Notes: generated from the letters alone by a model not told the origin. A stretch of 64,000 bases of DNA from an uncultured Planctomycetia bacterium (GCA_964354545.1 CAYHAE010000003.1:25019-89018), one strand, 5' to 3'; counted from the first letter of the stretch, positions 6,001 to 30,000 are shown. A program made the numbers and translations.

Positions 6001-9000
6001 GTGTCGACGGCGCGAATAAGGACCTCTTCGTGAAGACGTATCCGGACGGCTCCTACCTTGTCTACAACGACCAGGCACAGCCGACGCGGAGCGTCGGGAA
6101 TATCGTTGAACTCTTCAGCAAGAAGTACATCATCCAGGAGAACGTCGATGGGACCGTTGGGATGAAGGAGAAGCCGACCGAGGATGTGAACGCGGACGGC
6201 ATCGTCGACGGCTCTGACCTCGATGCGTTGAAAGCGTCCATGGCGCTCTCGTCCATGAGGATCACGCCTGTCTACAGCACCGAGGTGGGGGTAGAGTGGA
6301 CTGACGTGAAGGTAGCGAGATCAGGATACTATTCGCTCGGCATGCGTGTCCAGGGGACGAGCGCAACTGCGCCATTCGATAAGTTCAATATCCTCGTCAA
6401 GGTCGACGGAGATGCGGAGGGGAGCTTATTAGTAGACTACGACTACCAGAAAGAGCAGTGCGGGGAGACGTTCATATATCTCTCGGCAGGGACGACCCAT
6501 ACCATAACCGTGAAGGTCAACAACAAGGCACCCGGCATTGAGGATGATGCGAAGATAGACGTAAAGAGCGTCTACCTGCGCGATGCCTCGATCGAACCGT
6601 ACGCGGACCTCAATGGCGATTCGATCGTGGACAGGGCCGACCTCATCGCGTGGCACAATGCGGTCCCGGACGAGGCGCTCGCATGGAAACTCTCCATGGA
6701 AGTGCTTGGAGTACCCAAGACTTACTACCTCAAGGCCTATGCTGACGGAACCTGGGCAGTGTACGACACTGCGCTTGTGTCCTTGCCAGTCAACGGTTCC
6801 CTCGTCACCATAGACACCAGAGACTATATAATCCTGAAGGATGCCCAAGGCGCGCCGATGCTCAAAGAGCACCTCATCCAGGACGTGAATTTCGACGGGG
6901 CGGTGAATGCGACAGACGCGGAGCTGATAAAAGCCGGATTGGGGACAAAGCTGGGTGACGCGGGCTTCAATACTAACCTCGACCTCACTAAGGACAACGA
7001 GGTCAACGGCGATGACCTCAAGAAGTTCCAGGAACTCGTCCCCTCATCGCAGGACATCCTGAAGACCACACTCACGAGGAGCGGACTCCTCGACGTGTAT
7101 CTCTTGAAGAATCCGGACGGCACGTATACTTTGACCGATGGATATGTCCTGTTCGGGCCCACCGATTCCAAGAACAGGGTTACTATGGACGGGAAGGTCT
7201 ATGAGGTGGTGGCAGCACAGGATGGGACGACCATAATCCAAGAGGTGATGAAGGCGGATCTGAACGGCGACAACTTAGTAAATGCGAGCGACGACCTCAT
7301 CATCAATAGCGCCATCGGTTCTTTCGCAATACCGGTTAAGGCGCCGAATCAATTCCACGCGAAGGACGGTTTCGCGGTCTCGGACAAGCCGTCGGAGACA
7401 TCGCTCCACTCCACCGGAGGGGTCGCCAATTACACCCTCGACTATGAATATAATATAGAAGGCACAGGGACTTACAATATAGGGTTGTACGCGAGGGGGA
7501 GAGTCCCGCGCGACTACGGAGCCTACCTCTTCGAGGTCTATATCGATGGACGGACACTGCCCTCAGGTGAATTCGAGGTCCGCGCCGACGACCTGGAATC
7601 TCAGAGAGGAATAGTCAAGATCCGCCTCACGAACGGCGAACACACGATACGGTTCAAGTGGAAGAACCCGAACGCCTCCGTCGAGATCACCGGGGTCATA
7701 GTGGAAGACGAGAAGTATGATGTGAGGGCGGACCTCAATAACGACGGCAGGGTAAACTCCGGCGACCTCGATATCTACACACCGCTTAGAAATGCGCAGA
7801 CGGTAGGCGCGACGTACACGACGGAGAGCGGCATCCACATATCCATAGGCGGGACCCTCTATTCTGTTACGGAAGCGGGGAACGAATTCACCTTTACAGA
7901 CCTGGCGAGCGTCCCTCGCACCACGGTCCAGAAGAAGATCGCCTTCGGGCCTAAGAGCTATATGGTGACGAAAGATGCGGCGAACAACATCGTATTATAC
8001 GAAACCCAAAATACCGGCAATGCGACGAGCGACAGAACGATCTTCATAAAAGGAAACGTCTATACCGTGACCGAGCCTACGCTCGGAAATTACACGTTCA
8101 GCGGTACGCCGCCCGCGACCGTCTCAGGCAGCGAGGTCATCGTGAGCGGCACCACCTATCTCATACAGGAAGTCGAGGAGACCATAGTCCTGAAGGACAA
8201 GCTTGACCCCGGGACCCAAGTAACCGGTACAAGGAATATCACCATCGATGGATATCTCTATACCGTTGGTGAGCCTACCGCGGGGAACTACACCCTTACG
8301 AGAGTGGGGACCACCGCGCCCATACCTACCGTCGACAATGCCGCGGGAACAGTGACGCTGGGCGCGGCCACATACGACATAGTCACGGTAGACCCTGAAC
8401 GGCACATCGAACTGCTGCGAAGGACCGATGCGGCGCGGGAGAAGGCCGGCAGGTTCATGAATGTCCAGGGCGAGCTCTACAGGATAGAAAAGGCGGGCGC
8501 GGAACACGTATTCTCGAAGATCACCGGCACCTACACCACCACGAGCATAAGCCAAGAAGTAGATATCGCAGGGGTCCGCTACAGCGTGTACGTGGATTCC
8601 AAAGGCTATGTGAGCGTGCGGGAGATGCGTGATGCCGGCACCGAGAGCGCGTACTCGGACATCGTGATCGACGGCATTGCTTATCGTGTGAGCGGTACGG
8701 TGGGCAACTATTCCCTCGCGAGCCTCAAATCAGGCGTCCCTGATCCAGTGGTGAACAATCCTGCCAAGACGGTGACCGTGGGCAGCATAGTCTACTCGAT
8801 AGTGCCATCGAGCATTGACGGGAAGATCATGCTCATCCCGACCATGACAAAGTACGACGCGTCTGGTGACCGCATCATGACGATCGACGGCATAGGGCAC
8901 CTTGTCTCCAAGACCGGCGAGGACTGGAGCCTCACAAAGCAGAGCACGGGCGGGCTGCCTGCCATTGTGGACAACGTGCAGGATATCGTCACCGTGGGCA

Positions 9001-12000
9001 CCAAGCTCTATGCGATGAGCGAGGTAGAAGGAAAGCTTGTTCTCACAGAGGTGAGCGTGCACGGGAAAGAGGACGAGGAGGGGGTCGTTGATAAGATAAA
9101 CAAGTACGTCTGGATCAACGATGTCGTCTATAAGGTAGTTGCCGCGTTCAACGGAGATACGCATACCTATGACTTTGACTTCATCGCAGTGCAGGGGACG
9201 TCTCAGGTGAGCGAGATAGATAATATCAATAAGACGGTCACCATCAACGGCAAGAAATACCAGGTCACCAGGCTCGATTCGGGTATAATGATCGAACTCT
9301 CCCCTGTTGACAGGGAATCGACGGCGCTTGCGAAGAAGGTCGTGGAGATGGACGGCCTGTTGTATGAGATAGGCGGCACGACCGGTGCCTGGACCGTCAC
9401 AAAGATAAGCCAAGCCGCAGGGTCTACGGTCACGGTGAATAACCAGGATAATACGATATCCTTTGGGACACGGGTCTTCCTCGTCTCCCTCGACCCCATC
9501 AATAATGCCGCCACTCTCAGGCTCAAGCCTCAAGAGAGCACCCAGCTCTATAACCAGATCGTGGAATTGGACGGCACCACGTACAAGATCACGAGGAGAG
9601 ATCTGGGCTATGAGTTCGTAAAGGATGGGGCGTCTCCTGTGCAGGGTACCTTTACCACCGTCTATTTAGATAATACCATCTACGACATATCCCTGGACCC
9701 TGTCACGAAGGACTTACGGGTGACAAGGAAGCTCATCGTCGGGTCTCCTCTCGGCAGCGGCGTCATCCTCGAGAATATGACCTATACCGTTGACCGGAGA
9801 GAGGACGGCACGCTCCTCTTCTCCAATACCCTCACCCAGGAGTCGTACGAAAGCGAGAAGCGCGGGAAGTTCGTCCAGATAGAAGGCAGGGTCTTCGAGA
9901 TATCACGGGATATCCAGGACAGGATCTCTCTGCGGGAGATCCTGAAACCCGACGTGAACGACGACGGATTCGTGGACTCCCAGGATGCAATGGTCATCGA
10001 TGTGAATATCACGAGGCAGGCCTACATGAACAAGTCCGACATCGATGCGAACAGCGTGATAGATTTCAACGATTACGACAACTTCTTGGAGATCCTGAGG
10101 CTAAGGGACTTAGGTTATATCGGAAGCCCCGCAGACCTCCAGCGCCTGAGGAGGATCACGGATTACGCGTACAATACCTACCTCCAGAACAAGGCCCTCG
10201 AATTCGATGAGAGAAAGAATACGAAGTGGTCGGGAGGGGCAACTCCTATGGGAGAATTCGGCTCGCAGACCGGGTCTATGATGAACAACGGGTACATCGA
10301 AGAGGGCGAGGTCGAGGAGTTCAGGCGCGCCTATGCGGCGATAGGCAAGTACCTCTACGACTTCACCGATGACAAGGTGATAGACGAACAGGACGCCGAG
10401 TGGCTCAAGAAACTGTCCGAGATCATGGACGTTTATTACAGATATAACGACATGGGGTTCGACCTCGTTGCGGCGCGCGACAAGGCTGACGTGAACGACG
10501 TCGACGGCGATGGACAGGCGGAGGGCGACGGGGTGGTCGACGATGCCGACAAGGCGCTCATCCTCTACAGCTGGGCCAACTACTCCAAGTTCAACTTCAA
10601 TCCTGAGATCGATAGAGCGGGAATAGTCGATTCGGTCGATGTCGACTTTGTGCGGCGGATGTACGAGCTCATATGGCCGGGCGCCTATGAGACAAGGCCG
10701 TCGACGTTATGGCCGGAAGGTCCTGTTATGGAAGGGAGACGCCACGCCGCCCGCGCGGACGTGAAGACAGACTTCACGCAGTCCGTGGATACGGTCTGGT
10801 CAAAGACGCAGGACGCGTCTCTTACCTATGCCTTTACCACGGATACGCCGGGCGATTACTATGTCGGGCTCTCGGCGAAGAGCTATCAGAACGGCTTCCT
10901 GCCCGATAAGTTCCAGTACGTGGTTGCCGTGTACATCGACGGCGTCTACAGGACCACGGTACGCGTGAACGGGACGACCGGGAACAGGTACCTTGAGGGC
11001 TCGCGCCTCGTCACCCTTGAGAAAGGCGTGCACACGGTGCGGTTCGAGTTCAAGAACCTGTCGGACGTCATATCGGTCCACGTGGGAGAGGTCTTCCTCA
11101 ACAAGACCGGCTTCTCGCTCACCAAGTTCGATGTGAACGAGGACGGGAGGATAGGCGTTGACGATGCGGACACGCTGGAAGATATCATTCGGCTCTATAA
11201 CGTGAACGGCCTCAGCGGGGTAGACATCGACGACGTGGACCTCATACGGTCATATGCGGGGAAGAGGTTCGGAGAGCCGGAGTACCGTCCCGAGATGGAC
11301 CTGAACGGCGACGGCAAGATCTCGAACGAGGATGCCGATATCCTCGCGGCGACGATCGTCAGGCACGACAACAATAACGACGGCGTGCTCAATTCGTCCT
11401 TCATCAACGACCAGAAAAATGACGTCGATAGAGTAAGGGATGTGGGGTACTTCTACACAAATGAGCTCATGATGCAGAAGGACTCTTCCGGAAGATACCT
11501 GCTCGACTTCAACGACGACGGGAAGGTCGATATCCTCGACAGGGCGTACTACGCCGAGGCGATGAGCGCGGTCGATCTCGACGGCGACAGGAAGATCACG
11601 AGGGGCGATCTCGACGTGATGGATAAGATCATCGCGCTCGTCAATCTGGCCGTCAATCCCGACGAGGAGCGTCGCGCTGATATCACGGGAGACACGACCT
11701 ATACCGTGGGAGACGGGACCTCGCATAAAGTCCAGGGTCCGAGGCTCGGCACCATAAAGGTGAAGGGCTCAGATTTCGACATCGTGATAGACAACATCAC
11801 AGGTGAGGCGATGCTCGCGGAGCACCATGCGGAATCAGAGCCTCTCGTGGGCAAGAACGTTGTCTATCGCGGCCAGTTCTATAACGTGACAAAGGACTCC
11901 GCGGGCAGGTTCATCGTGAACGACGGGTCGAGGTCGTTCGTAAGCGAACCGGGAATAGACGAAGTCACGATCGACGGGAACAGGGTGGCGGTAACGGAAG

Positions 12001-15000
12001 ATCCGATCACGGGCGCTGTCACCATCGCCGACGTGCCCGAGAAGAGCACGCTCCTCTCTATCGCGACCGTCGAGGTTGACGGGGTGAAGTACTTTGTGAC
12101 AAAGGACAGAGAGCGGGAGAGGTACCTGTTCTCTGACGGAGTCCGCACGGCAGGGTCCAACCCGTACACGAAGAAGGTGAAGCTCAACGGCATCACCTAT
12201 ACCATTGCCGAGGTCGCGGATAAGCTCTCGTTGTCGAGAACACCGCCGCTCGCCATTGCGCCCGTAGCCAGCAAAGTGACTGTCGGCGAGTCGGAATACA
12301 GCTTCACAAGGATTGCCGCCTATGATTATAAGTTCACGAATACCGCCACCGGAAAAGCCTATACGAGCGACTCCCTGTCCCATGCGGTGGTGATAGACGG
12401 CGTCACCTTTGAGATTGTTGAGGCCGCAGGGGCACTCTCGTCCCTTAAGGAGATGTCCGCTACGAAGACCATTGCGGACGGCATCGTTTCGGTCGACGGG
12501 CTCGAATACTTCTATAAGGCAAATCCGGACGGGACCTATACCCTCGCGAGAGGGACGACCGGGATCTTGAGCGACGAACGGGGAGGCTCCATCGTCATCA
12601 ACGGATACACGTACGATATCACAAAGAGCGCGGACAGCTGCCACATCGTCCTGTCGGCGAGCGTTTCCAGGTCGAGCCACGTGGCCGATGAGGTCATCGA
12701 GCTCGTCCAGGACTACCAGGATATCAAGACCGCGGGGAGGCGCTACAGGGTCGTGAAGAATGAGGACGGAGAGACCCACACGTTTATCGATGGAACTCGG
12801 GAATATAAGTCGAAGATAGACGGTCCCGACGAGGTCATCGACTTCTCCTTTGGGAAGTTCAAAGTGACAGAGGATGGGAGCGGAGACGTGACACTGCAGG
12901 AGACGATACCGGCCGATGTCGATCCGTCGTTCGCGTACACCTCTCAGAAGGTGGCCGACCAGGTGATATGCGTGAACGGGACCGAGTATGAGGTGAAGAA
13001 TAACGGCGCCGGGTCCTATACGGTCACGAGGGGGATTTATTCGACGACCGGAACGACCGCGACCTCCATCACGGTGGACGACAAGGCGTACAGCATTGCC
13101 GAGACGACTGAGGGGATCGAGCTTACGCTCATCACGAAGCCGGTAGTCAATGACACTGCCCTCCAGGTGATACGGTCGAGCGGAGATGATTATAAGGTCA
13201 CCTATGACACCGCGTACCACTTCAATAAGGTAACCGACGGCACGCCGCTCAGCACCGCGGGGTACACTATTGTGACCCTGAACGCCCCTGCTCACCGGGT
13301 ACAGCTCTCCAAGACGTACGGCACGGCAGAGACCGTCACCGTGGACCAGGAGATCGACCAGTCCGTCGTGCTAGGGAAGAGGATCTATGACGTGGTGAAG
13401 AAGGCCGACAATTCCTACGAGCTCTTCGAGAACGGACTTATGAAGGCGAAAGGCACAGAGACGCTCGCGGTGGACGGCGTCACATACGCGATAAAGGATA
13501 ATCCGCGCGAAAAAGGAAAGATCGACCTTGTGGAAGTAGTTCAGGACACATCGGCACCCATCGCTCTACAGGCGGTGAGGCTGAACGGGAGGCTCTACAC
13601 CGTGACAAGGGATCCGGATACAGGAGACTACTTCGTATCAGACGGGAAGGCCACTTATAAGAGCCACAGGCTCAAGGAATCCACGGTCTACCAGCTCACC
13701 GCTCTCGCGGCGACCAACTTTATCCATATCGACGGCATGACGTTCGCCGTCACCGATGACGAGGTGACAAAAGGCTACAAATTAGTGCAGCTCTACGATA
13801 AGTCCACCATGCTCTCATTCAGGCAGGAGTTCAAGGTGAATGAGACCACTTATGCCTGGTGGTACGATTACAACGAGAAGCTCTACGTATTTCTGGATAA
13901 GGCGACCGGATGGACCTACTCAAGCGACAAACCTCTGGCGACGGTGAGGCTGGAGGGCGGGATACTCTACGATATCACCGTCGACCACACGACCAAAGAG
14001 CTGAGCCTCGCGGAGCGCCGGAGCGGCCAGGCAGCGGTCAACGGCATCGTGGAATTGGCCGGGAAGACCTATAAGATCGTGAAGAGGGGCCTCAAGACGT
14101 ATGATTTCATCCTCACCGTGGCGGGCATTGAGACGCAGACCGTCTACCACAGCTACCTCGCCGCAGGCGCGCACAGCGTCACTATCACGGGCGACCCGTC
14201 GAGGACCTATTCGATAACCAAAGAGACGGTGAATGACGTTGACTATGTCACGCTGCAGGAAGTGACGATGTTCACGTCGAACGACACCAAAGACAGCATT
14301 CAGCTTGGCGGAAAGACATACTCTATCACGCAGGTGGGCGACGTGTACAAGTTCCAGGATACCGTCTTTCTATTGGTCTACATGAGCGATCCGGACGGCA
14401 CCCTGAGGATAGGCAAGACCACCTATATGATCACGACGAAACCCAATAGTCTCGAGCTCGCCAAACAATGTGTGTCCATACCAAAGGAGACGCCCATCGA
14501 GGTTTCGGGCGTCTACTACATCGTCACCTATGACTATCTCACCGGAAAGTATGCGTTCAGCGATGGGTTCAACCGATATGAATCTGTCGGCGACGACAGG
14601 AAGCTGGTGACCATCGGGACGAAGGACTATGCGATCTCGAGAAACTCCGCGACCAACGTCATCACGCTCACGGAAGACACGAAAGGCAGGCCGATCCAGT
14701 TCACCTCGAGAGGCGGGAAGACCGAGGTAACGCTCGACGACGGCATCACCTATTCTCTCCACGCCCGCGCCGACGGCCGATATAGCCTCTCTACGAATCT
14801 GGCTACATACCATTCCGAGAGCCCGGACGCACTTCAGGTCGAAAAGGATACTTACACGATCACGTCCGACGCGAGCGGAGAGCTCATCTTCACGCGGCGT
14901 ATCGTGAGCGTCCCGGTAGAAGGCCAGCTCGTGAAGCTCTACAGCCAGTTCTACTCGGTGAAGCCGGACGGAAACGGCAGGGTGGATGAGAAGGATACGG

Positions 15001-18000
15001 CGCAGCTGGACGACGCCCTCGCAACCTTCGCGGAGTTCGACGTGAGCCAGGACGGCGTCATCGACGAACACGATTTCGATGTGATGGCGCAGAGGATATC
15101 CGGTGATTCAAAGAGCATACGGGAGCTTCAAGGTAAAGGCGCTTCCTTTGAGGACGCATTCCGCAGGATCTTCTCCGATGAGATCTTCTATCAGCAGGAG
15201 CTCGCTGCGGCCGACGCGAATAAGGATGGGTATGTAGATGCCCAGGATGAGACGGTCTATGAGGACCGCCTCGCCACCAATGTGGACCTCGACCTGGGTG
15301 GGCTCGAACTGCGTGAAGCGAAATCCGAAGGCGGGAAGATCACCTTCTATGGAGTCGAATACGATGTGACCTTTAACGGGACGGATACCTATACCCTCAC
15401 CACCGCCTCGCGTCCCGGCGCGACCTACACGGCATGCGTGGGAGACTCCGTCGAGATCGGCGAAGCCCATACGAGCTACAGCGTTTCCAAAGATGTGTCG
15501 GACAACCTCGTCCTCGCCCGGAAGTTCCAATTCACGGGAACGGGCGGCACGATCAGGGTGAACGGTGTCACCTATACGGTGACAGAGCCCAGCGCCGGCA
15601 TATTCAGATTCGATGACGGGAACGGGCATGCGTACACGAGCGCGGATGTAGGACAGCTCAAGAGGGTGAAGATAGGCAACTTCATCTATGAGATCACGGG
15701 GAATATCGCGAGCCTCACCCTCGACGAGAAGTATGCGGACAACAGGGTCAATGGCAAAACGGTCTATATACCTGAGGCTATGAAGCGGGACCTGGTGCGG
15801 CAGCTTATCCTCGATGTGCGGGCAGACATCACGGGGAATGCGGAGAACCCGGACGGCAAGGTCGATAAGAAGGATGCGCTTGCCTTCAGCACCCGTCCCG
15901 TTGACGTGAACGGCGATGGCTTCACGAACGAGCTTGACCTGAACCTCATATGGGATATCGCCGACAGGCAGAAGCTCGAAAGGATCAAGTACGACTTCAA
16001 TATGGACGAGGTGATCGATAATGCCGACATCGTGAAGTACCGGGACGACATCATTCCGCATAGTCCTGTCATAATCGATCTGAACGTCGACGGAAAGATG
16101 GATGCGAAGGACGTCGAATACCTGGAAGCCGTCGTCCTGCCTCAGATCGTGAAGAGGAACCTCGCGATGAGGTTTGACCGCGATTTCAACGGGGTCGCCA
16201 CGAGGGCCGAACTCGCGCCGTTAGAGGATGCCCTCTTGGCAGCGGACTTGAACCGCGATATGCGGGTCAACGAGGCAGACCTCAAGACCTTCGCGGATAT
16301 CGAGTCCCGCTATGCATCGCTCCCGCTGTCGAAGGCCGAGGTCGTCGCAAGCGATATCAATCAAGACGGGATAGTCGACTACAAGGATGCGGCCCTCCTC
16401 GAGGACGCGATCGCTCACCACGTGGATGTGAAAGGCGACGGGGTCGTCGATGACAAGGACGTGACGATCGTGAGGGAGATCGTCACGGGCGGAAAGCCGG
16501 CGAATGCCTACGTGAAGGTCGACCTGCCGCAGTACTACCTGTCCAAAGATGTCGTGAGCAAGGCAGACGTGAACAAGGACGGCGTGGTCGACGGCGAAGA
16601 TTACGACGAGTGGTCCAAGGTCGCGCTCGAGCGGGTAAACCTCGACGTCGCCGACGCCGGAGGGCTCATAAGGATCTACCAGGCAGAAGGCGGCAAACTC
16701 GTGACCAATTATCCGGAATCCTCATTTGCATACCAGCTTACCCTGGAGAAAGAAGGACGATATCAGTTCAACTTCGACGTGAAGGCCGCGGAGTTCGCAG
16801 CCCTCTCCTTCGACGTGTTCGTCGACGGCATAAAGAGCGGCGAGATGCTGACGGGCGCGGTACCGAGCGCCGCCACGAAGGCCTCCGTTGTCATCGATGT
16901 CCCGAGCGGGGAACACACGATCATGTTTGTCATGCGCTGCCCGAGCTCACGAAGGATCGCTATCGAGCTGGCCAACCTGTCGTACACCGTACCAGTCGAT
17001 CCGAAATACGACGTAAACGGCGACGGGATCTACTCTTATGACGACGGCAGGATTGTCAATGCCTTTGTCGATGCCCAGAAGCTGCTCGAGGAAGCGGATA
17101 TCAACTGGGATGGCGCGGTAGACGACAGGGACCTGGTGCTCCTCGATATGGACAGGAACGGCACCATCGAAGGCGCGGAGACCACCATAGACTATAGTAG
17201 TCAGTTATCAGTGAGGCGGGATGTCACGAGAAACGGCGTGGTAGACCAAAGGGACCTCACCGCCCTCGGCGAAATCCTCGACGCGATCGAATACATCTCG
17301 AGGGCCGACGTGAACAGAGACGGCTTCATCGATGGGAAGGATGAGATCGATATCGCCGAGTCGGTGAGGGACTACCGGGACATCACGGGCGCAGACGGTG
17401 TTGCGGATGAGCGGGATATCGCGACCTTGTGGACAGCAGCGTCGGCGTTCCACACCATCACCTTTGAGGAGGCGATGGGGTCAGACCTCACGGGAGACGG
17501 CATGATAGATGCGCGGGACCTTGCGAAGATAGCCTACTACGCGGACAGCAACCTGCTCTCCACCATGGTCGAAAAGGTAAAGAGCCCGACCTCGAAGTTC
17601 GATGCGAAAGTAGCGGACAAAGACCTCGCAAGAGACGAGATCGTGCGGGCGCTCACGAGCCTCGGAGGCCTCGATGTCCAGAACAGCAAGCTCGTGAGGG
17701 CCACGTCGAGGTATGAAAGGTTCGACCTCCCCGTCGCGCTGAACTGGACAAGCGACGGCACTCAGTGGATGGTGAAAGACGGCGTCTACAGTCAGACCGC
17801 ATCCGGTACGGCTACTCATGTGAGCACCTACGAGTCGGAGGATATGAGCGATTTCAGCGTCGAGGCGGACGTGAGGGTCGACGGCGGATTCTTCGGATCA
17901 GGGTTCATGCCCGAGATGTACCAGACCCGCACCCGGATGGATTCGGGCGGCGCCGGGATCGTATTCAGGATGAAGGATGCGGGTAACTACTATGAGGCAT

Positions 18001-21000
18001 ATCTCAACTCCGCGACGAGGTCGCTCGAGTTCAGAAAGGTCGTCGACGGAGGCGCGCCTATCGTGATGAAGTCCGTGAAGGTCGGGATCGCGGGCGACAG
18101 ATGGTACCGTCTCGGCGTCAAGGCTCGCTCGAGGTTCTTCGAGTTCACGATCGACGGCAAGAAGGTCTTCGATTTCATCAGTACGACCTTCGGTACGGGG
18201 GGAGTCGCGCTTAAGGTCGGTCCGTCCACACGGGCATCGTTCGATAACGTGAGGTTCTCTACGTACAATACCCTCGATCAGATCGCGAGAGACGGGCTGC
18301 TGGACAAGGACCTCGATGGAGATTCCGACATTGATGCGTGGGATTACGGAATACTCAAGGCCCTCAACGTCATGAGCGAGACGGACGTGGACGGGAACGG
18401 GAACGCGGATGTGAATGATAAGCAGCTCCTCGTGGACGTGAGCACGTGCGACTTGAACGGCGACGGGCTCGTGAACGAAGACGATTATACACCTCTCGAC
18501 CTCGATGGCGATACCGATGTTGACGCAGACGACGTGAAGATCGTGGAGACCGCGGCGCATTTAGCGAACATGCCGAAGAGGTTCGACTTTGCGGACATCA
18601 ATAAAGACGGGAGGGTCGATTGGAACGACTATGAGACCGCGGAATCGAGCCTCGCGGCGCAGGTCGATGTGAACGGTGACAGCGCGTTCAACCACCTCGA
18701 CCTCGTCACCATAGACGCGGTCATGAAATATAACGCCCTGCCCATCGCCGAGACGACGCTCGCGCTCGCGGACGTGAACGGCGATGACACTATCGACTCG
18801 AAGGATATCGAAGACCTCACGTTCTCGATCACCTACTACGGAAGGGCCGACGTGAACGGTGACGGCCGGAAGGACTTAAGCGACACGCTCGACCTCGCCA
18901 GGGTCATCCAGAATATCACCAAACCGTACTCGGATCCCGATGCGATCGTGACGTCTTCGGTGAGGGAGAAGGCGGACGTGAACCGCGATACCAAGGTAGA
19001 CCAGGACGATGTGGACGAAGTGAGCTACTGGGTCACGCAGTATATCGCGAATCCCACCGTCACCTCAGCCCTGATCGACGTGCGCACGTACGACTTCGAT
19101 AAAGACGGGAAGCTCTCGGCACAGGACACCGCGATATGCGCGAACATAAAACAGCTCATCGCGCAGGGGAAGTACCTCACGAACGAACAGCTTGCCCGTT
19201 ACGATGTGGACAGGAACGGCATAATCGACGCAGCTGATGCAAAGATGATGGTCGATATCTTCGCATGCCTCAAAGACGTCGACCTTGACGGAACGGTCGG
19301 CCCAGGCGACGTGAGCGCGATCGAGCTCATACTTTACAGAGAGTCCCTCGGAGTCACACGAGAGCAGATCGAGCTTTCGGACATTACGGGAGACGGCTGG
19401 GTGACGAGAGATGACTACACAACGCTTGAGAACGCCCTCAAGACAGCGGACCTGCTCGATGCGAACGGTGACGGGTGGGTGGATGCGAATGAGAAGAAAG
19501 CGCTCGCGGACATCATCACCGCCTTCATGACAGGCAAGATACTCACCAAAGAAGAATACGCGAAGGCAGACTTCAACGGGGATGGAGACATCAATGGTAA
19601 AGATATATCTGAGCTCAACGACCAGCTCCTCGCGCTCTACGAGGCAAGGCTCTCAAAGCAGAAGTGGATGGAGTCGGCCAGGCTGAAGGCCCCGGCACTC
19701 ATCAGGGACGCGATCGACGTGAACGGAGATGGGAAGAGGGACGACACGGATACGGCACGGGTGGACGCCATCGTGCAGTACTATAAGGATGCGCTCAAAG
19801 ACGGCATCACGGAGAAGATGGTCGACGATGCCGATATCAACAGGGATTTCAGGGTCAACGAAGACGACAGGGCGCTCCTCGAGCGGCTCGTTGTGGACAG
19901 CGAGTCAACCGGCGGAATAGAGACGGGGATCCCCTACTACCCCTTCTCGCATAGCCCGCAGGCGCAGGAATATGCCAGGATGCTCGACCTCAACAAAGAC
20001 GGCTTCGTTGACAAAAAGGACGAGATCATCTTCCTGTCGGCATACGAGGGGTTAAAGCCGGAGGTGGGCGAGCTCAGGCAGATGGAGGATTTCGTGAAGT
20101 ACGACTTCAATAGCGATGGGTACGTGGACAAGAAGGACCTGCAGATCATCTACGACGTGATCCTTGGACACGTGGACATCGATGGAGACGCCCTCATAGG
20201 GGACTCGGAGAAGAACGCAAGCACCAATCCTCTTACGGATACGGAGATCCTCAATGAACTCATACAGATAGACAAGAAGTGCGACGAGCTGGGGATAAGC
20301 CTCGCGGCGCTCGACGAAAATGTCGATCCCGAGCACCTCCCCGATGAGGTCAACAGGCTCAGGATCGCTGCGCGGTTCAGCGAGGACCCCCTCGAGAGGA
20401 TCACGCGCACGGCGTACGACAACATGATGATCGCGCTCAACACGAGGGACAATCCTTACTACGACATCGACAACAACGGAAAGTTCGACTATAAGGACGT
20501 CTACCTCCTCGAGGATATCTACGGCGCGATCCAGGACTATGCCTCAGGCTCCACCACAGGCGGGGCGAGGACCGTGCTTCAGCCCATGGAATTCCATATA
20601 CGGGATGTGACGAACAACTTCGAGATCGACAGGCACGACCTCGAGGCGGTCCAGGACGCGAGGAAGAGCCTCATGTCCTTCCGGCTCGACCAGCTCATCA
20701 AGAAAGAGGACGCGTACAGGCTCTACAAGTTCAGAGGACTGAGCGAGGTCATCACCCCGGACGACATCAGGAGGGGCGATTTTGTGCTGAGAACGGGCGA
20801 TGAGGACGGAGCGCTCTACGTGAACGACCATGGTGAGAACGACTCGCAGATCCTCATCTCCAAGATGATCTGGGGCCACTATGATGAAGAGGGCAACCTC
20901 ATCATAGTCCCGGAGTGGGCCCCCGGCGAACAGCGGCTCGTGAGAAGGCCGAGGAAGGGCGAGAAGAAGAGGATCCTCCACGATATGGCGGTCTATCCGG

Positions 21001-24000
21001 GCGAACCGCCAGAAACGCCGCCGCCTACGGATGAGGGCTACGAGAACGTATTCTCGAGCGTCAAGCCGTATATCAATCCGAGCGATATCGACAAGGACGG
21101 GCTGGTGAGCGCCGAAGACCTGTACTTCATACAGAGGGCGATGCGAGAAGTCGGCCTTGGCGAACTTCCTTCCATCCCGAACCTCATCGTCGGGAACATC
21201 GACAGAGACGTTGATATAGAGATCACGGATAAGGATCTGACGAAGATGATCGAGACCATGATGCGGGCGAGGGACGTCGATGGCAACCTCGCGATCGATA
21301 GTAACGACGCGGAGATGGTGAGGGAGATGCAGGACAGGGTCCTGAAGGCGAAGGAGGTTATCGGGAAGATAAACGATATCAAGGCACTGCTTGCCAAGGA
21401 CACGTTCGATGACCTTGATATCGCGTACATGAACGTGCTCCTCGACTACCTCAACATCAATGTAGACGAGTACAAGAGGGCCGGCGGTGTTGACTACGAG
21501 ATCGACAAGATGGCGAAGGTCCTCGAGACCATGTTCGGCGGCATCACCGAGCCTGCCCAGCGGGAAACCGTATTGACGAGCCTCGTCAAGGGATTCGGCG
21601 TAAAAGGCGCCGGCAGGGAGAGGATAATCGGTCCGGCCAAGCCGGTCGAGGTTCCTCAGGCACAATGGGACCTCTTGCTGAGGATCAAGGCGAGCCTCGA
21701 TTTCTCCACGCTGGACAAAGACGGGGACGGCAATGTGACCGACTACGAGATCGCCGCCATGGAGAGTCTCATCGGGACGGTCCTGGACGTCTCCGCGATC
21801 CCTGATGACGAGATGGCAAGGGCCGATATCAACGGAGACGGGATCGTGAACGGGTTCGACCTCGATGCGCTCACCACCGCAGTGACCCACAACGTCGATG
21901 TCAATAACGACACGGTCATAGACTCCCAGGACTACTATGCATGGCTCGAGCTCAAGACGTTCATGAACTACAGGATCCAGCCAGGGGAGCTTGAGCGTGC
22001 GGATGTAGAACTGCTGGAAGAGCCGGACAAGATATTCACCGAGCCGTTCCCATTCGAGAGGTCGGGGACCGTGCAGGGCGGGCTCTACAGGATACTCAAG
22101 AATGCCGAGGGAGAACCGCTGCTCGATGCGGAGAAACAGGTCAGATTCGAGGAGCTCTCGGTGACGACAGAGAACGCACAGGACCTCTTCGCTCTCCAGT
22201 GGGCCATCGACAACATCGACAAGATCGATTTCGACGAAGACGGGACGATCGAGGCCTCTGACCTCAACGCGTACCTCGATACGCTCCTCTTCATAGAAAA
22301 TTCCACCATCCAGCAGCAGATGCTGAGGCGCCATGCCATGGACCTCGTCGACGCCGAAGGCAAGAAGGACGGCGTGGTCAACCAGAAAGACCTCGACAGG
22401 TTCGTCGAGGTGGTGTACACGCAGCATGTCGACGTGGACTCAAACGGCGCGGTCTATGACAGGGACGTGTCGAGGATAAAAGAGATCATCGCCGCCGACC
22501 AGATAAAGGAGAGGTGGACCAAGGAATATCCGGACCTCATCGGAGAGCTCTCGAGGAGGGTCATCAATGTCGACGCGCAGCACTTCTACATCGACTATGA
22601 TCCGGCGACCGTCACCTACATCTTCACGCGGTTCGCGCTGCCCAACGAACCGGGCCTGCCGGCAGGCGAGGAGCCCATCACGAGCGACCCGAGAAGTCAG
22701 ACGGTAATGATAGGGGAGACCCTCTATTACATTACCGAAGAGGCTGTCACGAAGAGAGTAAACCTTTCCGACACCGTCACGCTCTATAAGGAGCAGAAGG
22801 CGCCGAAGGCATACGTGCGCATCGCGGACATAAACGGAGACGGGAACGTCGACTTCCTGGACCAGTACGGCCTCAACGAGGAGCTGCAGAAAGCGAGGGC
22901 GCTGGGACTCCAGAAGATCGACTCGCACTTTGCGGATACGGTAAGGGAAGTGAAGAGCCTCATCGACGCCTGGAAGGCCGTCGTCATAAAGGTCGCAGAG
23001 GTGAGCAGGCCCGTCTATGACCAGGTGGTAGAGGTCGAGGGCCGAAAGCTGGGGGTAGAGGTCGTGCCCGAGGATAACGGTGTCAGATCGTATACGGTAT
23101 ACGACATCGTAAACAATAACAAGGGCTACGTGAGCAGGCGCGACCGCATGACCGGGGACATCACCGTAAAGGTGGGCTCCATAGTCTATCTCGTCATCTA
23201 TGACTCGCTCTCGCACAAGATAAGCCTGCAGAAACTCTACACGAGCTCCATCAAATTAGCCGATAACCTCATCAAGCTGGGAGAGCAACAGTATGAGGTG
23301 CTCGACAACCAGGACGGAACGTTCACGCTGAGGGACGGGGCGATCGTATACGTGAGCCAGAAGAACACAGACCTCATCCTCGTCGGAGATGAGCTCTACA
23401 GGGTCATAAAGAACGAGAATACGGGAGAGATCACCCTCATTAAGAAGGAATCGACGAGGAGTGAGTCGATATCCATTGAGGGAGGCCAGCTCATTGCCCT
23501 CGACGGCGTGCTCTACAAGGCCGACTATGACGCGGGCGAGGGCTTCTTCTTCAACGACGGCGACCACCTCTACGGCACGGTGCCGGGATCGCAGTATATC
23601 GAGATAAAGAACAGGCGGTATAAGATCGCCATGGACCCTGACACTCGCGTCATTCAGCTCACCGAGATCATCCCCGGCGACCTGAACGAGGACGGCATCG
23701 TAGACGCCGCCGATGAGGCGCTGCTGCGCGCATCCTTGACCAAGCAGGCGATAAGCGTCGATGCGAACAGGGATGCCGTGAACTACGTAGAGCTGGACGG
23801 GGTACGGTACGACGTCTATCAGGATCCTGCGACCGGAGAGATCACGCTGAAGGAGAGGAAAGACGTGGGGTCCGGTACGAAGATCTCGGACACCGAATAT
23901 ACCGCAGTCCTCATAGTGGAACCGGGGAGGAGGAGGGCGCAGTGGGTGGGAAGCGTGAAGACCGGGACGCCGAACGTGATCAAGGTCCAGGGCGTGTACT

Positions 24001-27000
24001 ACGAGGTCGAAGATATAGGCGGAGGCGTCTATGAGTTCAGGAGGAACGGGAACATCGATTACAATGATATCCTCGCGAGGTCAGGCCTCGTGTACGGCGG
24101 CAACGAAGCGAGGTGGAATGAGGCGAAGGCGATGCTTGAGGCGAGCCTCGCGCCCAACACCTATTTCTACAGCGACCCGGATACCAACACGGTGACTCTC
24201 GACGGCATCACCTATACGATACAGGGTCCGGCGAACGAGGTCTCCCTCACCGGAAGGGACCTCAGGATCGCCACCAAGGAAGTGAGGGATGCGAACCAGA
24301 ACGTCATAGGCCTAAAAGAAGACGATACGGATCCGCTCGAGAAGATCGCGATCAACCTCTACGTTAAGAAGAACCCCGACGGCACGTTTACCTTCACGTC
24401 GCCTTTGTGGAAGTATCAGGGCATGAGCGCGGCGCTCGCCGATGAGATCGGCCAGGTCGATGCGGGAGCGCACAAATATGCGGTCGCATTCACGGTCGAC
24501 GGCAGCGATGTCGTCATCGGGGCCCTCAGCGGCAACGTGACAACCGATGAGACGCACGGCAAAGTGATGCTGAGCAATATTCCGATCGGGCCCGCGGGCA
24601 CCACCGCGCGCAAGATATACAGGACGGACGCCGGCGGTTCGACGTTTAAATTTGTCGCCACCATCGATGACAATACGACCACCGCCTTGCTCGACAATGA
24701 GCCCGACTCGGGCCTGGGGGCCGATATGGGCGCAATCACCTCTGAAGAGATACCCTTCACGAGCGACCTCACGACGAATACCGTCGTCTTGGGCAACTAC
24801 ATCACGTACAGTATCGTAGAGGCTGCGGGAAAGATCACCTTGCAGGAGGCGATGTCTGAAAGCACGACCGTCACCGGCCAGGTGATCGAACTCTACGGCG
24901 TGAACTACACCGCCCGCGATAACGGAGACGGGTCCTATTCCTTCTCTGACGGGACCCATACCTATACGAGCGATAAGGATACCAAGACGGTGAGGATCGG
25001 CGAATTCATCTCGGCCTCCTACGGAGAATATATCGAGGGCATGACCGAGGAGCAGCTTAAGGAGGTCACGGGCATATTGTACGATGTATCGGTGGATCCC
25101 GCGACCAATAAGGTTACGCTGGTCACCCACAAGGAGCTCAAGAATCCGGTCCAGGTCATACAGGTAGGCAAGTCCCCGTGGGAGATGGCATCGGCTACGG
25201 CAGCGCTTGAGAACGAAGCCGGGGACGTCAACGCGGGGACGCATGCCTATTCAATCGTATTCACCGTTGATGGCAACGACGTCGTGAGCGGCATCCCCAC
25301 CAATACCGTCACCACCGATGCGACGCACGGGAAGGTGCTCCTCAGCAATATTCCGATCGGGCCCACGGGGACCACCGCCCGCACGATATACAGGACGGGC
25401 GCGAACGGCGCGACGTTCAAGTTCCTCGCGTCCATTGACGATAACGTCACCACCACATATGAGGACAGCGCGGCCGATGCGACCCTCGGCACGCCCATGA
25501 GCCCCGTGTCGAATCAAGCCGAGTATTACAGCGTCACGACCGATTACCGCGGGTATGTGGCGATATCGACCTATCCCGACGGCGTCATCGTGGCACAGCT
25601 CGCGCCCACCGCGACCGAAGTCGACATCCACGGGGTAAGGTACTCGGTCGCAAAAGACGGCGCAACGGGCAAGATCACATTGGCGCGGGTGGGCGAACCG
25701 TCCAAGACATCGCTCGACGTGAGCCTCGTGCGGGTCAACGAGGTTACTTACAGCGTGACGATCAATACCCAGGAGCCGGAGACGTTCACGTTCACTTACG
25801 GCACGAACTCGAGAACGAGCTTCATCAATACCGAAGATCCGCAAGATCCGCTTAACCAGGTGCAGCTCTTCGACGGCATAACCTATGACATCACGCGCGA
25901 CGCGGCATCCGGGAAGCTGCGGCTCACGGAGCACTATACGAGGGGCACGTCGCAGGAAGGGCGGCTCATCATCCTCGGCAGTAAGGCCTACGGGGTGCAA
26001 GAGCGCGACGACGGCTACGGCACCATCATCTATTCCTTCTACGACGGCGATACGGTCGTGGCAGAGTCGACGAGCGACGGCACGACGACCACGATAGCCA
26101 TCGACGTGAACGCGGACCTCACCCCCGAGACATTCTATATCTTCCGCGACGCGTCCGCCGACCTGATCACCGTGGTGAGCAAAGACCGCACAGTGAGGAG
26201 CGACCTCAACGACGTGCGGTCCTCGGGGATGAAGAAGATCGTTTATCTCGACGGCATGTGGTACGACGTGAAGAGGCTCGATGACGGAGAGTGGGAGATC
26301 TCCTGGGAGACCGTCAACGCGTCACAACAGACGGTGAGGATCGTGAGGGTGACCACCCCTGAGAATAAAGACGTCAAGCTCGCCAACGACAAGGTCTTTG
26401 AGGTGAAGGATGTCACGGTGGCGGACAAGCCTCAGGCCCACCTGAGCCAGAAACATTACATCACCTCCACCGTCCTCGACCTCTACGACATAAAAGGCAA
26501 GAAAGAAGCCCGCAAGGTCAACATCGGCGGCGTCGATTATATCATACGATACCTGGGGAGGGAGTTCGATGAAACGCTCGGCCACTATGTGCCCAAGTTC
26601 ACGCTCACCCACGACAACATGGTCTATTCGAACAGAGAAACGCCGAAACCCATAAAGTTCGGCGGAAGCTCGCTCTTCGGCGATTCAGGCACGACGATCA
26701 CGTTCGAGAAGAAAGGGTTCTTCGTAGACCTGCCTGAGGCGACGATAGGCGTAGAGAGCTTCCCGTTCGTGTATGCGAACGCCGTGGAGATCATCGATAC
26801 GGTGACAGGAGAGCGCAGGCTCTACACTATTGCCGCGAACGGCAAGGAGGGAGGGAACTTCACGCATTCGTTCTACGGGTACGGCCAGAGCTTCGAGACC
26901 TATATACTTCCCCTGGCCAAGATGGAATACGTGGATATAAGGGACATCATTGTCCCTGACCCCGACACGGGAACTCCGGAGCCGTTGAAGATCTCGCTGG

Positions 27001-30000
27001 GAGACCTCGACCTTCAAGACGCCATGACGGACAACAGCTTCCTCGCCGAGTCGAAGTGGGCGGGCAAGATAAAGATAGAGAATGATAGGGACAACAGGTA
27101 CTCGCTCCGCTTCTATCCCAGGTTCAATATCGCGACCGAGGTCGCGCAGGTCACGGAGCTCACCTATCTGGAGACAGACCTTCTGAGAGACTCAAGGTCC
27201 CTCGAGGAGAGCGACGGCGTGACGTTCTATCAGATCGAGGAGAGGGTTACGCTCGGAGACGAGGCGTTCAACATGACGGCGGTGAACGACCAGCCCGTGC
27301 TTGAGTCGGAATATATCCGGTCCGCCGCGGTGCCCTCGCGAAATGCGATCGTGCTCGCGGACGGCGCGTACGGATATGACTACAAGAGGGTGGGCAGGAC
27401 TTTCGAGTTTACGGACGGATTCAATACGTATAGAAGCGACCCGCAGGGCGAGTTCGTCACCATCCAGGGCAAGACCTACAGGATAACCCTCGATGATATG
27501 GACAAACCTATCCTCGTAGAGCGTCACGCGATGAGCGTAAAACTCTCCGACTGGACACCGACGACTCCGGGGAGGATCAGGGTCACCTCAACGGGCGATG
27601 AGTTCGACGTCACGAAGAACGCCGACGGGACGTTCACCTTCACGGGAACGAAGGGGACATTCACAAGCGTCAAGAGGGCAAAGGTCGGCGGGCTCTTCTA
27701 CGACCTGAGCATCGACCCGGCGAAGAAGGCAGTGACGATGAAGGAGGAACACGCGGCACGGGACCCGATGGATTACGTCATGATCAGGGACGTGAGGACC
27801 GACCACAACAACGTGACTATCGGCTCGCAGATCTCGAATCTCGGTTTTGTCGGCATGTTCAAGGAGGCCTATGACCTCAATGGCGACTACGAAGGCAATT
27901 ACTATGAAGACTGGCCGTTCGGCACCGACACGGGTTATTACGGCAACTATGGCTATCAATCCGGCAACTACACCTATACGGCTGAAGAGCTTGCGCTCCT
28001 CTTTGACCTGCAGTACGGACAACATGAGGACCAGGGTTACTCCAACGAGTGGTTCACGGGCTTCGACTACATGATGATGACGGAGAAGTACGCGGACTAC
28101 GACTATACGGACGATAGGACCGACGCGGTCTACACCTATGACTATTCGACGGGAGAATACGTCACATCCAGTTCCGGTTATCAGATGGGTTCGTTCGGCA
28201 TGGGCGGCGATGCCCTCGCCGGAAGCAAGTACTTCAAAGACGTCTACTCGGACCTCACCTATCAGGGGAACTCCGACCTCTTCTTCCTCACCCCGAACTC
28301 ATCCACGTGGGGGTATTCCGGTGGCGGCTTCAGCGGCGGAAGCCCGATGGGAATGGGAATGGGAGAGGACTCACAGAGGGTAACGTACCAGAGCGCCACG
28401 CGCAACTACTATAATACGACCCAACAGATGGTTCTCTATCAGAACGAGGTGCGCAGGGTGATGGCCCCCGAATACAACGGGGACTACGGCCACTATCTCG
28501 ATGACGGCGTGAAGATCGTCACCGACTTCAACGCCGACCAGAATAGGCGCAAAGGGTTCACGTTCGGAGGGAAGGATTACGACCTCGTCTACGATCCCGA
28601 TACAAAGACGTATACGCTAAAAGAAGCCTACGTATATGACTTGGCGAGCAAGGACCAGAAGTTCGTCGTCGCCGCAACGACCACGGAGCCTCCCGCGACC
28701 GTCTACGGTGTCTATGACGACAAGACCTACCTCTCTTCCGGAGGGTCTCCCGAGAAGTTCGTCATGTCCATCACGGGCAAGGATATGGGCAACATAGGAT
28801 CGGTGCACTATTACAGCCTCAACGACATCATGAACAATCCGACCGTAAGCGCGCTCTTTGGCTATGACCCGCTCGCGCTGGACCGTACCTTTACGGTGAA
28901 CGGCCAGACCTACAGGATCTATGAGAGCTATCCTGACGCGGGACGCTATGTCGTGGAGCGGGAAGGGCCCCGTGACGAATCCGCCGTTGTGCCCAATAGG
29001 GTGATCAAGATAGGCACGGGCATCTATGAGGCTATAAAAGACGTAGACCCAATGGACAGGCCTGACAGCGGCAGGTTCTATTATAAGTTCGTGAAAGGCG
29101 CCGAAGAGATCCTGAGCACCTACAATGACGTGACCGGAAGGTGGGAGGTGAGATTGAACGACGGCAAAGTGTATGAGATGTCGTTCGAGGACCTCACGAA
29201 CGAGATCATCCTGTCCACGCAGTCCGAAAAGAGCGCATATATAGCGACTACCTATACGACAACCAATGTGACAACAGAAACGATCAGAGAGACCATCGAG
29301 GGGTCAGAGAATGGGGACGGAGATCCGGAGGTGATCGAGTTCACCGTCCTCACCAAGGACTACCAGGTCATCGTGGAGAGCCAGACGTTCAACGGCAGAG
29401 TGGTGACGAAGGCCTGGGGCGCGAGCGGCATAGACCCGACGTATGTAAATTCGGTGACGCTGAAGAGGCTCGTGGATGATGGGCATGGCGGAAAGACGCT
29501 CGATGACAAACGATACGACATCTTCGCGTACAAAGCCTCGGTGTCCGAGCCGGATCCTGAATATCCGTGGGAACCGCCGACAATCGTGGAAAAGTACAGG
29601 CTCTATATCGCTTATGAGGTAGGCCCCGGCGTGTACGAGACGAAGGAATTGACCGACTTCGGGACCGTCTACATCGAGGGAGACGGCTACCGCTCATTCC
29701 TCAATAAAGATCCGTCGACGGGCGAGCTGCTCCAGGTGAGCCTCGACAAGATAACCTTGATCAATAAATCCGGCAGCGGACTGAGGCTGAACGATACGCT
29801 CTACATGGTATCAGGGAATAAGGGTACCTACAAGGTCACCGTCGGAGAGGATAAGAGGCACTATGACAGCGGTTACTCCCGAGTGCTTGGTGAGCAGATA
29901 CAGGTGCTCTACCTGCCCGAGGAGTACGAATCCAATCCGTTTGACAATACGGTCATCCTCGACGACGGAATCGCCTATAATGTCATGATCGATCCTGAGC

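Follow-up and report, generated by a model that had tools for sequence, protein, structure and literature searches.

The 64,000-nucleotide (nt) stretch of DNA considered here (hereafter the window), taken from an uncultured Planctomycetia bacterium (GCA_964354545.1 CAYHAE010000003.1:25019-89018), carries long arrays of calcium-binding-type loops that an initial annotation had flagged at nt 15760-22450. Judged by sequence profiles and predicted structure, these loops are genuine type-I-like dockerin F-hands, as they score above the Pfam cut-off for the family, occur as a duplicated F-hand and are predicted to adopt a three-helix fold that superposes on known dockerins. We consider it probable that the flagged region is part of a secreted or surface-located, strongly acidic 'Dockerin-type giant protein', in which it would act as a calcium-folded structural or adhesive element.

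The 64-kb window lies entirely within one giant gene, which it truncates at both ends. Six-frame translation reveals a single open reading frame (ORF) in frame 3 of the plus strand (nt 3-63998) that runs for 21,332 codons with 0 stops, and the other five frames contain 174-1140 stops. Because this one sense ORF spans the window, the 32 minus-strand ORFs of at least 150 amino acids (aa) are antisense by-products. The ORF product is rich in Asp (9.6%), poor in Cys (0.1%) and has a net charge of -6.6 per 100 aa. The initial annotation was right that the loops are real, but did not mention that one ORF fills the whole window.

Loops were counted with a 24-residue hidden Markov model (HMM) of the loop and its following helix, seeded from strict regular-expression matches and iterated on the ORF. 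This model recognizes 103 units at a score of at least 3 bits and 114 at a score of at least 0 bits, and 10 residue shuffles of the sequence yielded 0-4 matches each, with a top score of 0.2 bits. The loops are thus present far beyond chance, although the earlier figure of well over 100 was slightly generous, with about 100-115 being the correct range; the regular expression offered with that figure retrieves only 39 loops in the window, and the looser pattern D.[DN].[DN]G retrieves 86. At least four of the 114 units (at aa 13932, 13958, 14040 and 18928) coincide with TSP3-type motifs and not with dockerin-type loops. Units are found in all four intervals that had been named as loop-bearing, with counts at the stricter and the looser threshold, respectively, of 11 and 13 at nt 15759-17558, 25 and 26 at nt 18279-22448, 5 and 5 at nt 42228-42872, and 13 and 16 at nt 56979-59201. 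The flagged interval as a whole therefore holds 36-39 units. Their consensus is A-D-[VLI]-N-x-D-G-x-[VI]-D-x-x-D, and each loop is followed by a hydrophobic, amphipathic helix rich in A, L, I and V, much as the L/A-rich helix of the initial annotation had it. Across the 103 higher-scoring units, the successive ligand and glycine positions are occupied by D in 98, N in 67 or D in 24, D in 95, G in 78, D in 70 or N in 17, and D in 97.

Assignment of these loops to a protein family is consistent across three types of comparison, with Pfam, profile searches of the PDB and fold searches all favoring dockerins. When the ORF was scanned in 1000-aa chunks, Dockerin_1 (PF00404, gathering cut-off 22.9 bits) was the top family in every loop-bearing chunk, with EF-hand_7 second. 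Its scores in the three chunks across the flagged interval are 81 bits (four stretches, nt 15003-18002), 121 bits (eight stretches, nt 18003-21002) and 49 bits (nt 21003-24002), and eight other chunks with loops score between 25 and 91 bits. A single-sequence search of the PDB aligned a pair of loops spaced by 37 aa to the Xyn10B dockerin of C. thermocellum (2CCL_B), including the inter-loop linker 'LTxE..A-D'. Pairs of loops lying 31-44 aa apart were taken as candidate modules, which gave 38 from the window together with three homologues (alignment A4). This A4 profile produced full-length dockerin matches in the PDB, the best being the tandem double-dockerin 8X39 (E 1.7e-14, two stretches), followed by 2Y3N_B, 2CCL_B, 1OHZ_B and 4FL4_A at E values of 6e-10 to 1.3e-9.

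Structure prediction leads to the same family. A single module (aa 6360-6426, nt 19086-19283) modeled with AlphaFold2 from alignment A4, at a predicted local distance difference test score (pLDDT) of 79.5, is predicted to consist of a loop, a helix (residues 13-27), a short helix (34-40), a second loop and a final helix (50-66). In a Foldseek search of the PDB with this model, the top of the ranking was occupied almost exclusively by dockerins, with template modeling (TM) scores of 0.56-0.67 and root-mean-square deviations (rmsd) of 2.5-3.3 A. These include 2CCL_B (TM 0.56/0.60, rmsd 2.7 A, probability 1.00) and 4FL4 (TM 0.67), and then 8X39, 4DH2 and 2VN5. Profile searches did not move the loops to any calcium-binding family of different topology. 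An RTX beta-roll (GGxGxDxUx) was rejected, in agreement with the initial annotation, as GGxGxD occurs 0 times in the 21,332 residues, and bacterial TSP3 repeats (PF18884) were rejected for the flagged loops because no TSP3_bac match is present in the chunks covering nt 15003-24002.

Applied to the ORF, the A4 profile delineates 34 near-full-length two-loop modules at scores of at least 10 bits (best shuffle, 2.2 bits), 16 of which are located inside the flagged interval. A run of eight, at aa 6165-6727 (nt 18495-20183), is essentially uninterrupted, with gaps of 0-30 aa. Loop spacing in the arrays is mostly 21-60 aa, and values of about 24-26 often alternate with values of about 33-42. Since the modules are essentially contiguous, the shorter spacings correspond to junctions between modules without linkers, and the longer ones fall within modules. 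Tandem repeats at the DNA level are absent from nt 15000-23000 except for one 24-bp trifle, and the units are about 30% identical to one another, which together indicate that the array is old and diverged and not an artefact of assembly.

The flagged interval contains two arrays, and these and the other features of the ORF described below are encoded on the plus strand. Array 1 (aa 5278-5852, nt 15834-17558) contains 11-13 calcium loops, with full modules at nt 15900-16046, 16239-16430, 16419-16622, 17091-17297 and 17391-17552, and is broken at aa ~5560-5665 by a beta-domain (~nt 16680-17000). It is divided from array 2 by a DUF1080 or 3-keto-disaccharide hydrolase-like (concanavalin-like) domain at nt 17745-18257 (PF06439, 34.1 bits against a cut-off of 26.8). 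The dense part of array 2 (aa 6101-6727, nt 18303-20183) begins with four tightly spaced loops, continues with the eight near-full-length modules noted above, and has an Asp content of 17% and a net charge of -12 per 100 aa, within the range of -9 to -12 for the arrays overall. Density is uneven, however, and the remainder of the flagged interval (nt 20184-22448) is a sparse tail in which nt ~20190-21690 carries only about three loops. Isolated modules are present in this tail at nt 20460-20666, 21708-21899 and 22221-22427 and single loops at nt ~21084 and ~21273, separated by helical or unassigned sequence. Two further arrays lie downstream. Array 3 (aa 13756-14257, nt 41268-42773) has modules at nt 41343-41543, 42216-42374, 42402-42560 and 42579-42773 and is interleaved with a TSP3-type cluster at nt 41721-42161. 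Array 4 (aa 18996-19731, nt 56988-59195) has 13-16 loops, six of its modules are complete, and it matches Dockerin_1 at 91 bits in four stretches.

A comparison with homologous proteins indicates which features of the arrays have been maintained. When the flagged interval was searched against 5.8 billion proteins, only three matches came back, of which P0001 and P0002 are partial proteins of Candidatus Omnitrophota metagenome-assembled genomes (MAGs) and the third is P0003. P0001 (1,820 aa; DUF1080, Dockerin_1 and EF-hand_7) is collinear with aa 5169-6928 of the window at 30% identity over 1,848 columns and carries its DUF1080 domain in the equivalent place, and P0002 is collinear with aa 4462-5846. 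In the alignment with P0001, 26 of 29 loops, including those of array 1, are in register, where chance would give about 2% per position. Ligand and glycine positions are 73% identical, compared with 31% for the rest of the loop, 21.5% for the helices and 29% (28.9%) elsewhere. These values, together with the in-register loops, show that selection retains the calcium ligands and the placement of the loops, and not the helix surfaces that face cohesin in known complex structures. Among the 103 units, positions 10/11 and 17/18 show high variability.

Related arrays were sought in 1.84 billion representative proteins with a unit profile of 30 residues, which matched 33,886 of them at E<=1e-3, with 109 passing E<=1e-30. 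Ranked first is P0004, with 74 units in 2,796 aa, which is denser than the protein in the window, and other matches have 30-52 units. Among the ten best, eight bear NCBI names, and all eight of these are fragments from Candidatus Omnitrophota MAGs. The array-rich public proteins reach Dockerin_1 scores of up to 496 bits, and several of the fragments are annotated by NCBI as 'dockerin type I domain-containing protein' or 'DUF1080 domain-containing protein'.

Not all dockerin-type loops in the ORF belong to arrays. An iterated profile defines a supermodule of about 256 aa, composed of an F-hand (A), a beta-rich domain of about 70 aa, a second F-hand (B) and a beta-sandwich of about 140 aa. Nine copies are found at nt 864-7679, and further copies are located at nt 30888-31739 and 35739-38396. 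The single loops of the supermodule match half-dockerins in PDB chains, and Dockerin_1 was matched in 9 of 10 copies. The beta-sandwich has weak matches to CBM35 (2VZP), CBM6, malectin and CBM60. A loop had been said to occur singly after every beta-sandwich module, which is true of this supermodule family but not of all beta-rich stretches, since aa 8000-10250 are free of loops. The 21,332 residues include 22 Cys, several of which directly precede an A-type single loop of the supermodule (CDLNGD, CDTNGDG and CDMTGDG, at nt ~3075, 5130 and 5904, or aa 1024, 1709 and 1967).

The initial annotation regarded kilobase-long dockerin arrays as an undescribed architecture. This view is wrong, as such proteins were reported by West-Roberts et al. 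2023 (bioRxiv 10.1101/2023.11.21.568195), by Seymour et al. 2023 (PMC10066038) and in a 2026 preprint cataloguing Omnitrophota proteins (10.64898/2026.06.07.730766), and NCBI annotation also preceded us. The 'Dockerin-type giant proteins' of West-Roberts et al. are encoded in an Omnitrophota genome and combine many Dockerin/EF-hand and TSP3 repeats with ILEI, DUF1080, GNAT and discoidin domains, CBM35-like barrels flanked by dockerin-like helices, a SecA-like/C39 region and a C-terminal membrane anchor. The dockerin-like helices were predicted to pack against the barrels in ladder-like assemblies, and the proposed role is attachment to the surface of a host or prey; a T2SS-like locus is reported upstream (10.1101/2023.11.21.568195). 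Seymour et al. described nine non-cellulosomal dockerins, considered putative adhesins, in a giant ORF of Aquinicolibacterium lacustre. The 2026 catalogue contains a dockerin-bearing class with at most 15 Pfam copies per protein and a dockerin plus TSP3 cluster of 17 proteins.

The protein in the window shares with the Dockerin-type giant proteins a giant ORF, many Dockerin_1/EF-hand and TSP3 repeats, ILEI and DUF1080 domains, a region of RHS-like repeats recognized by eye, and beta-sandwiches flanked by F-hands, here seen at the sequence level and with weak CBM35/CBM6 matches. In contrast to that class, discoidin was not found in Pfam scans of the ORF, and GNAT gave a weak match only (E=0.008, below cut-off). 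The nearest public fragment is only about 30% identical, and most of the ORF is without a collinear relative. The 34 full modules and roughly 100 loops found here compare with the nine dockerins of Seymour et al. and the maximum of 15 in the 2026 catalogue, with the caveat that counting methods differ among these studies. No new category is needed. As judged from its sequence, the protein is a very divergent and unusually loop-rich addition to the known Omnitrophota giant-protein class.

Likeness to the type I dockerins of cellulosomes (PF00404; C. thermocellum Xyn10B, 1OHZ/2CCL) extends to the duplicated F-hand, the ligand pattern, the three-helix topology (predicted here) and, in some modules, the 'LTxE..A-D' linker between loops. 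The setting is different, however, in that there is no cellulosomal context, no catalytic cargo beside a single C-terminal dockerin and no cohesin detected in the window. In addition, the residues on the helix surface that in clostridia determine which cohesin is bound vary in the arrays and are often acidic. Proteins with multiple dockerins are rare in cellulosomal bacteria, usually having one module and at most seven (PMC12484212), whereas the present ORF has dozens of modules and many isolated half-dockerins. A solved precedent for tandem dockerins without a linker is the double-dockerin of Clo1313_0689 (8X39), the top profile match, whose two modules share a stable interface with limited mobility (PMC12484212).

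How might such an array work? An F-hand combines a loop of 12 residues, in which positions 1, 3, 5, 9 and 12 supply the ligands, with a following amphipathic helix, and each loop most likely binds one Ca2+. The fragment would therefore carry roughly 100 ions, in addition to any bound by TSP3 repeats. A high calcium stoichiometry and calcium-dependent rigidification, both proposed in the initial annotation, are reasonable expectations that fit the selective conservation of ligands (73% versus 29%). Clostridial dockerins fold only with Ca2+, and for this reason the arrays would be expected to remain unfolded in the low-calcium cytoplasm and to fold after export. Outside the cell, the dense arrays, with modules of about 60 residues joined head to tail without linkers, could form stiff stacked helical beads similar to those in 8X39. 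Such beads might extend and rigidify a fiber while presenting variable acidic surfaces for adhesion. Similar behavior is known from the calcium-rigidified giant adhesins, such as the RTX adhesins MpIBP and LapA and SiiE, which form long, acidic, repetitive extracellular fibers that are stiffened by Ca2+ and whose folding is deferred until export. There, calcium is bound between Ig-like domains or by RTX nonapeptides, whereas here the sites would be dockerin F-hands, with no GGxGxD. The Omnitrophota are ultra-small bacteria that probably depend on hosts or are predatory.

Several considerations weigh against this structural or adhesive role. Calcium binding, an extracellular location, a rigid-rod or adhesive function and independence from a cohesin partner are all properties that we infer indirectly. 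To our knowledge, cohesin binding is the only function of dockerins that has been established by experiment. The window lacks both ends of the protein, so that neither a signal peptide nor an anchor is seen. A rod-like packing of modules finds no support in an AlphaFold2 model of a 370-aa segment of the dense array, made from a 10-row alignment (pLDDT 51.6, predicted TM score 0.21), in which secondary structure alone is usable and consists of repeated loop-then-helix elements with no strands. Assignment of the protein to Omnitrophota, which is probable, comes from collinear homologues at 30% identity, and other parts of the ORF that were examined have no collinear relative. For example, a homologue search with nt 39003-45002 gave domain-level ILEI and TSP3 matches only (4-7% coverage) and no orthologue.

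An alternative is that the protein is an inverse scaffoldin, in which each module docks a cohesin-bearing partner. Such a partner could be an enzyme, an anchor at the cell surface, or a beta-sandwich resembling cohesin that is part of this giant protein or of a neighboring one. The outcome would be a surface complex or lattice of several proteins, held together by a scaffold that carries dockerins and not cohesins. This arrangement would exploit the one proven function of dockerins, and the modules do have the full dockerin signature and predicted fold. Moreover, half-dockerins flank every beta-sandwich of the supermodule, and the ladder-like dockerin/CBM35-like assemblies predicted by West-Roberts et al. 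2023 could be viewed in the same way. Nevertheless, Pfam Cohesin gave no match with any 1000-aa chunk of the ORF (E<=0.01) or with 10 supermodules searched at the looser threshold of E<=0.1, and no cohesin domains are reported for Omnitrophota by West-Roberts 2023, by Seymour 2023 or in the 2026 preprint. The helix faces that would contact cohesin are the least conserved class of positions (21.5% versus a background of 28.9%), and positions 10/11 and 17/18 vary so much that dozens of partner specificities would be needed. We therefore find an inverse scaffoldin unlikely. A structural or adhesive calcium-dependent role is favored over conserved cohesin docking because the helix faces are variable, because no cohesin signature is present in the window and because the arrays are strongly acidic. 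The retention of ligands and not of helices by selection argues in the same direction.

In our estimation improbable is a pair of proposals in which the linkerless arrays do more than serve as passive beads: that dozens of sequence-distinct dockerins on one chain each recruit a different cohesin-like partner to an inverted scaffoldin, or that the arrays form a calcium-driven folding ratchet, which would drive and orient the export of a chain exceeding 21,000 residues. Such a ratchet would play a part like that of RTX repeats in type I secretion, with a different fold. If either proposal were true, dockerins would have a function outside the docking of cellulosome-type enzymes.

It is highly unlikely that the loops constitute canonical EF-hands that serve as a calcium sensor or buffer, switching as helix-loop-helix pairs with the level of Ca2+ or simply buffering it. 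Some features do recall EF-hands: EF-hand_7 exceeds its cut-off of 30 bits in two chunks (42.5 and 41.3 bits), EhCaBP1, CaBP1 and calmodulin come close behind the dockerins in the PDB profile search, and a short entering helix ('LTxEE..A') precedes some loops. However, only those two chunks pass the cut-off, and Dockerin_1 always outscores the EF-hand models. At loop position 12, 97 of the 103 units have Asp and the other 6 have Glu, and the modeled module compares poorly with EF-hand pairs such as polcalcins and calmodulin (TM 0.27-0.30, rmsd ~9 A), in contrast to its good superposition on dockerins. The canonical EF-hand pair (PF13499 and relatives) was rejected on these grounds. Furthermore, the neighboring TSP3, CBM-like and DUF1080 domains are those of extracellular adhesins, a setting in which Ca2+ is no signal. 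Finally, a compositional or assembly artefact can be dismissed, for despite the Asp-rich nature of the ORF and the tendency of giant repetitive genes to be mis-assembled (West-Roberts 2023), a chance or artefactual origin is refuted by the low-scoring shuffles of both the unit and the module profile and by an independent orthologue, taken from a different assembly, in which 26 of the 29 loops stay in register, and the region has no DNA tandem repeats among its diverged units.

What is added to the known class is the resolution of dense arrays into linkerless tandem modules beside isolated half-dockerins, and evidence that selection acts on the calcium ligands and the placement of loops and not on the helix faces by which cellulosomal dockerins bind cohesin. 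The eight contiguous modules at nt 18495-20183 constitute a compact, well-defined fragment that is suited to a first biochemical look at non-cellulosomal dockerins. Dockerins of this type were reportedly catalogued in 2009.

Other domains are distributed along the ORF. Bacterial TSP3 repeats (D-x-D-x-D-G-x-x-D-x-x-E) cluster at nt 44628-45047, with other clusters at nt 56790-56894 and within array 3 as described above. PF18884 scores 78 bits in the chunk at nt 42003-45002 and 40 bits in that at nt 54003-57002, and the pattern D.D.DG..D..E has 14 matches. On this profile evidence, the clusters are a second, distinct calcium-binding repeat family in the same protein. An ILEI domain is located at nt 39768-40040 (PF15711, 66.6 bits, cut-off 27) and a DUF4214 domain at nt ~60255-60446 (PF13946, 39 bits). 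About 2,000 residues at nt 24003-30002 (aa ~8000-10000) have neither calcium loops nor a Pfam match and few internal repeats, and a unique 600-aa stretch within them (nt 27003-28802) has no relative among 185,579 GTDB species representatives.

A second large internal repeat family occupies approximately nt 45000-48000 and 51000-56700. To the eye it resembles YD/RHS repeats, with 'YDxxG', 'YYDG' or 'TYQY' every ~20 aa and copies that are 23-34% identical, and it has no Pfam match at E<=0.01. These repeats may be the counterpart of the RHS-like 'antiparallel beta-helix tubule' in the predictions of West-Roberts et al. 2023.

Two observations were made on array-rich proteins elsewhere. P0005 (JGI/ENA, 2,148 aa), with 30 units and a Dockerin_1 score of 323 bits, carries an N-terminal phage baseplate-wedge domain (PF23786, 46 bits), which is an odd pairing. 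In the Omnitrophota MAG GCA_015231405.1, nt 15-31046 of contig JADGBR010000015.1 contain dockerin-bearing ORFs of 3,026, 3,985, 942, 1,013 and 14,271 aa, arranged head to tail on the same strand and separated by 0-90 nt. Either frameshifts have split a single giant gene, or several giant genes truly follow one another here.

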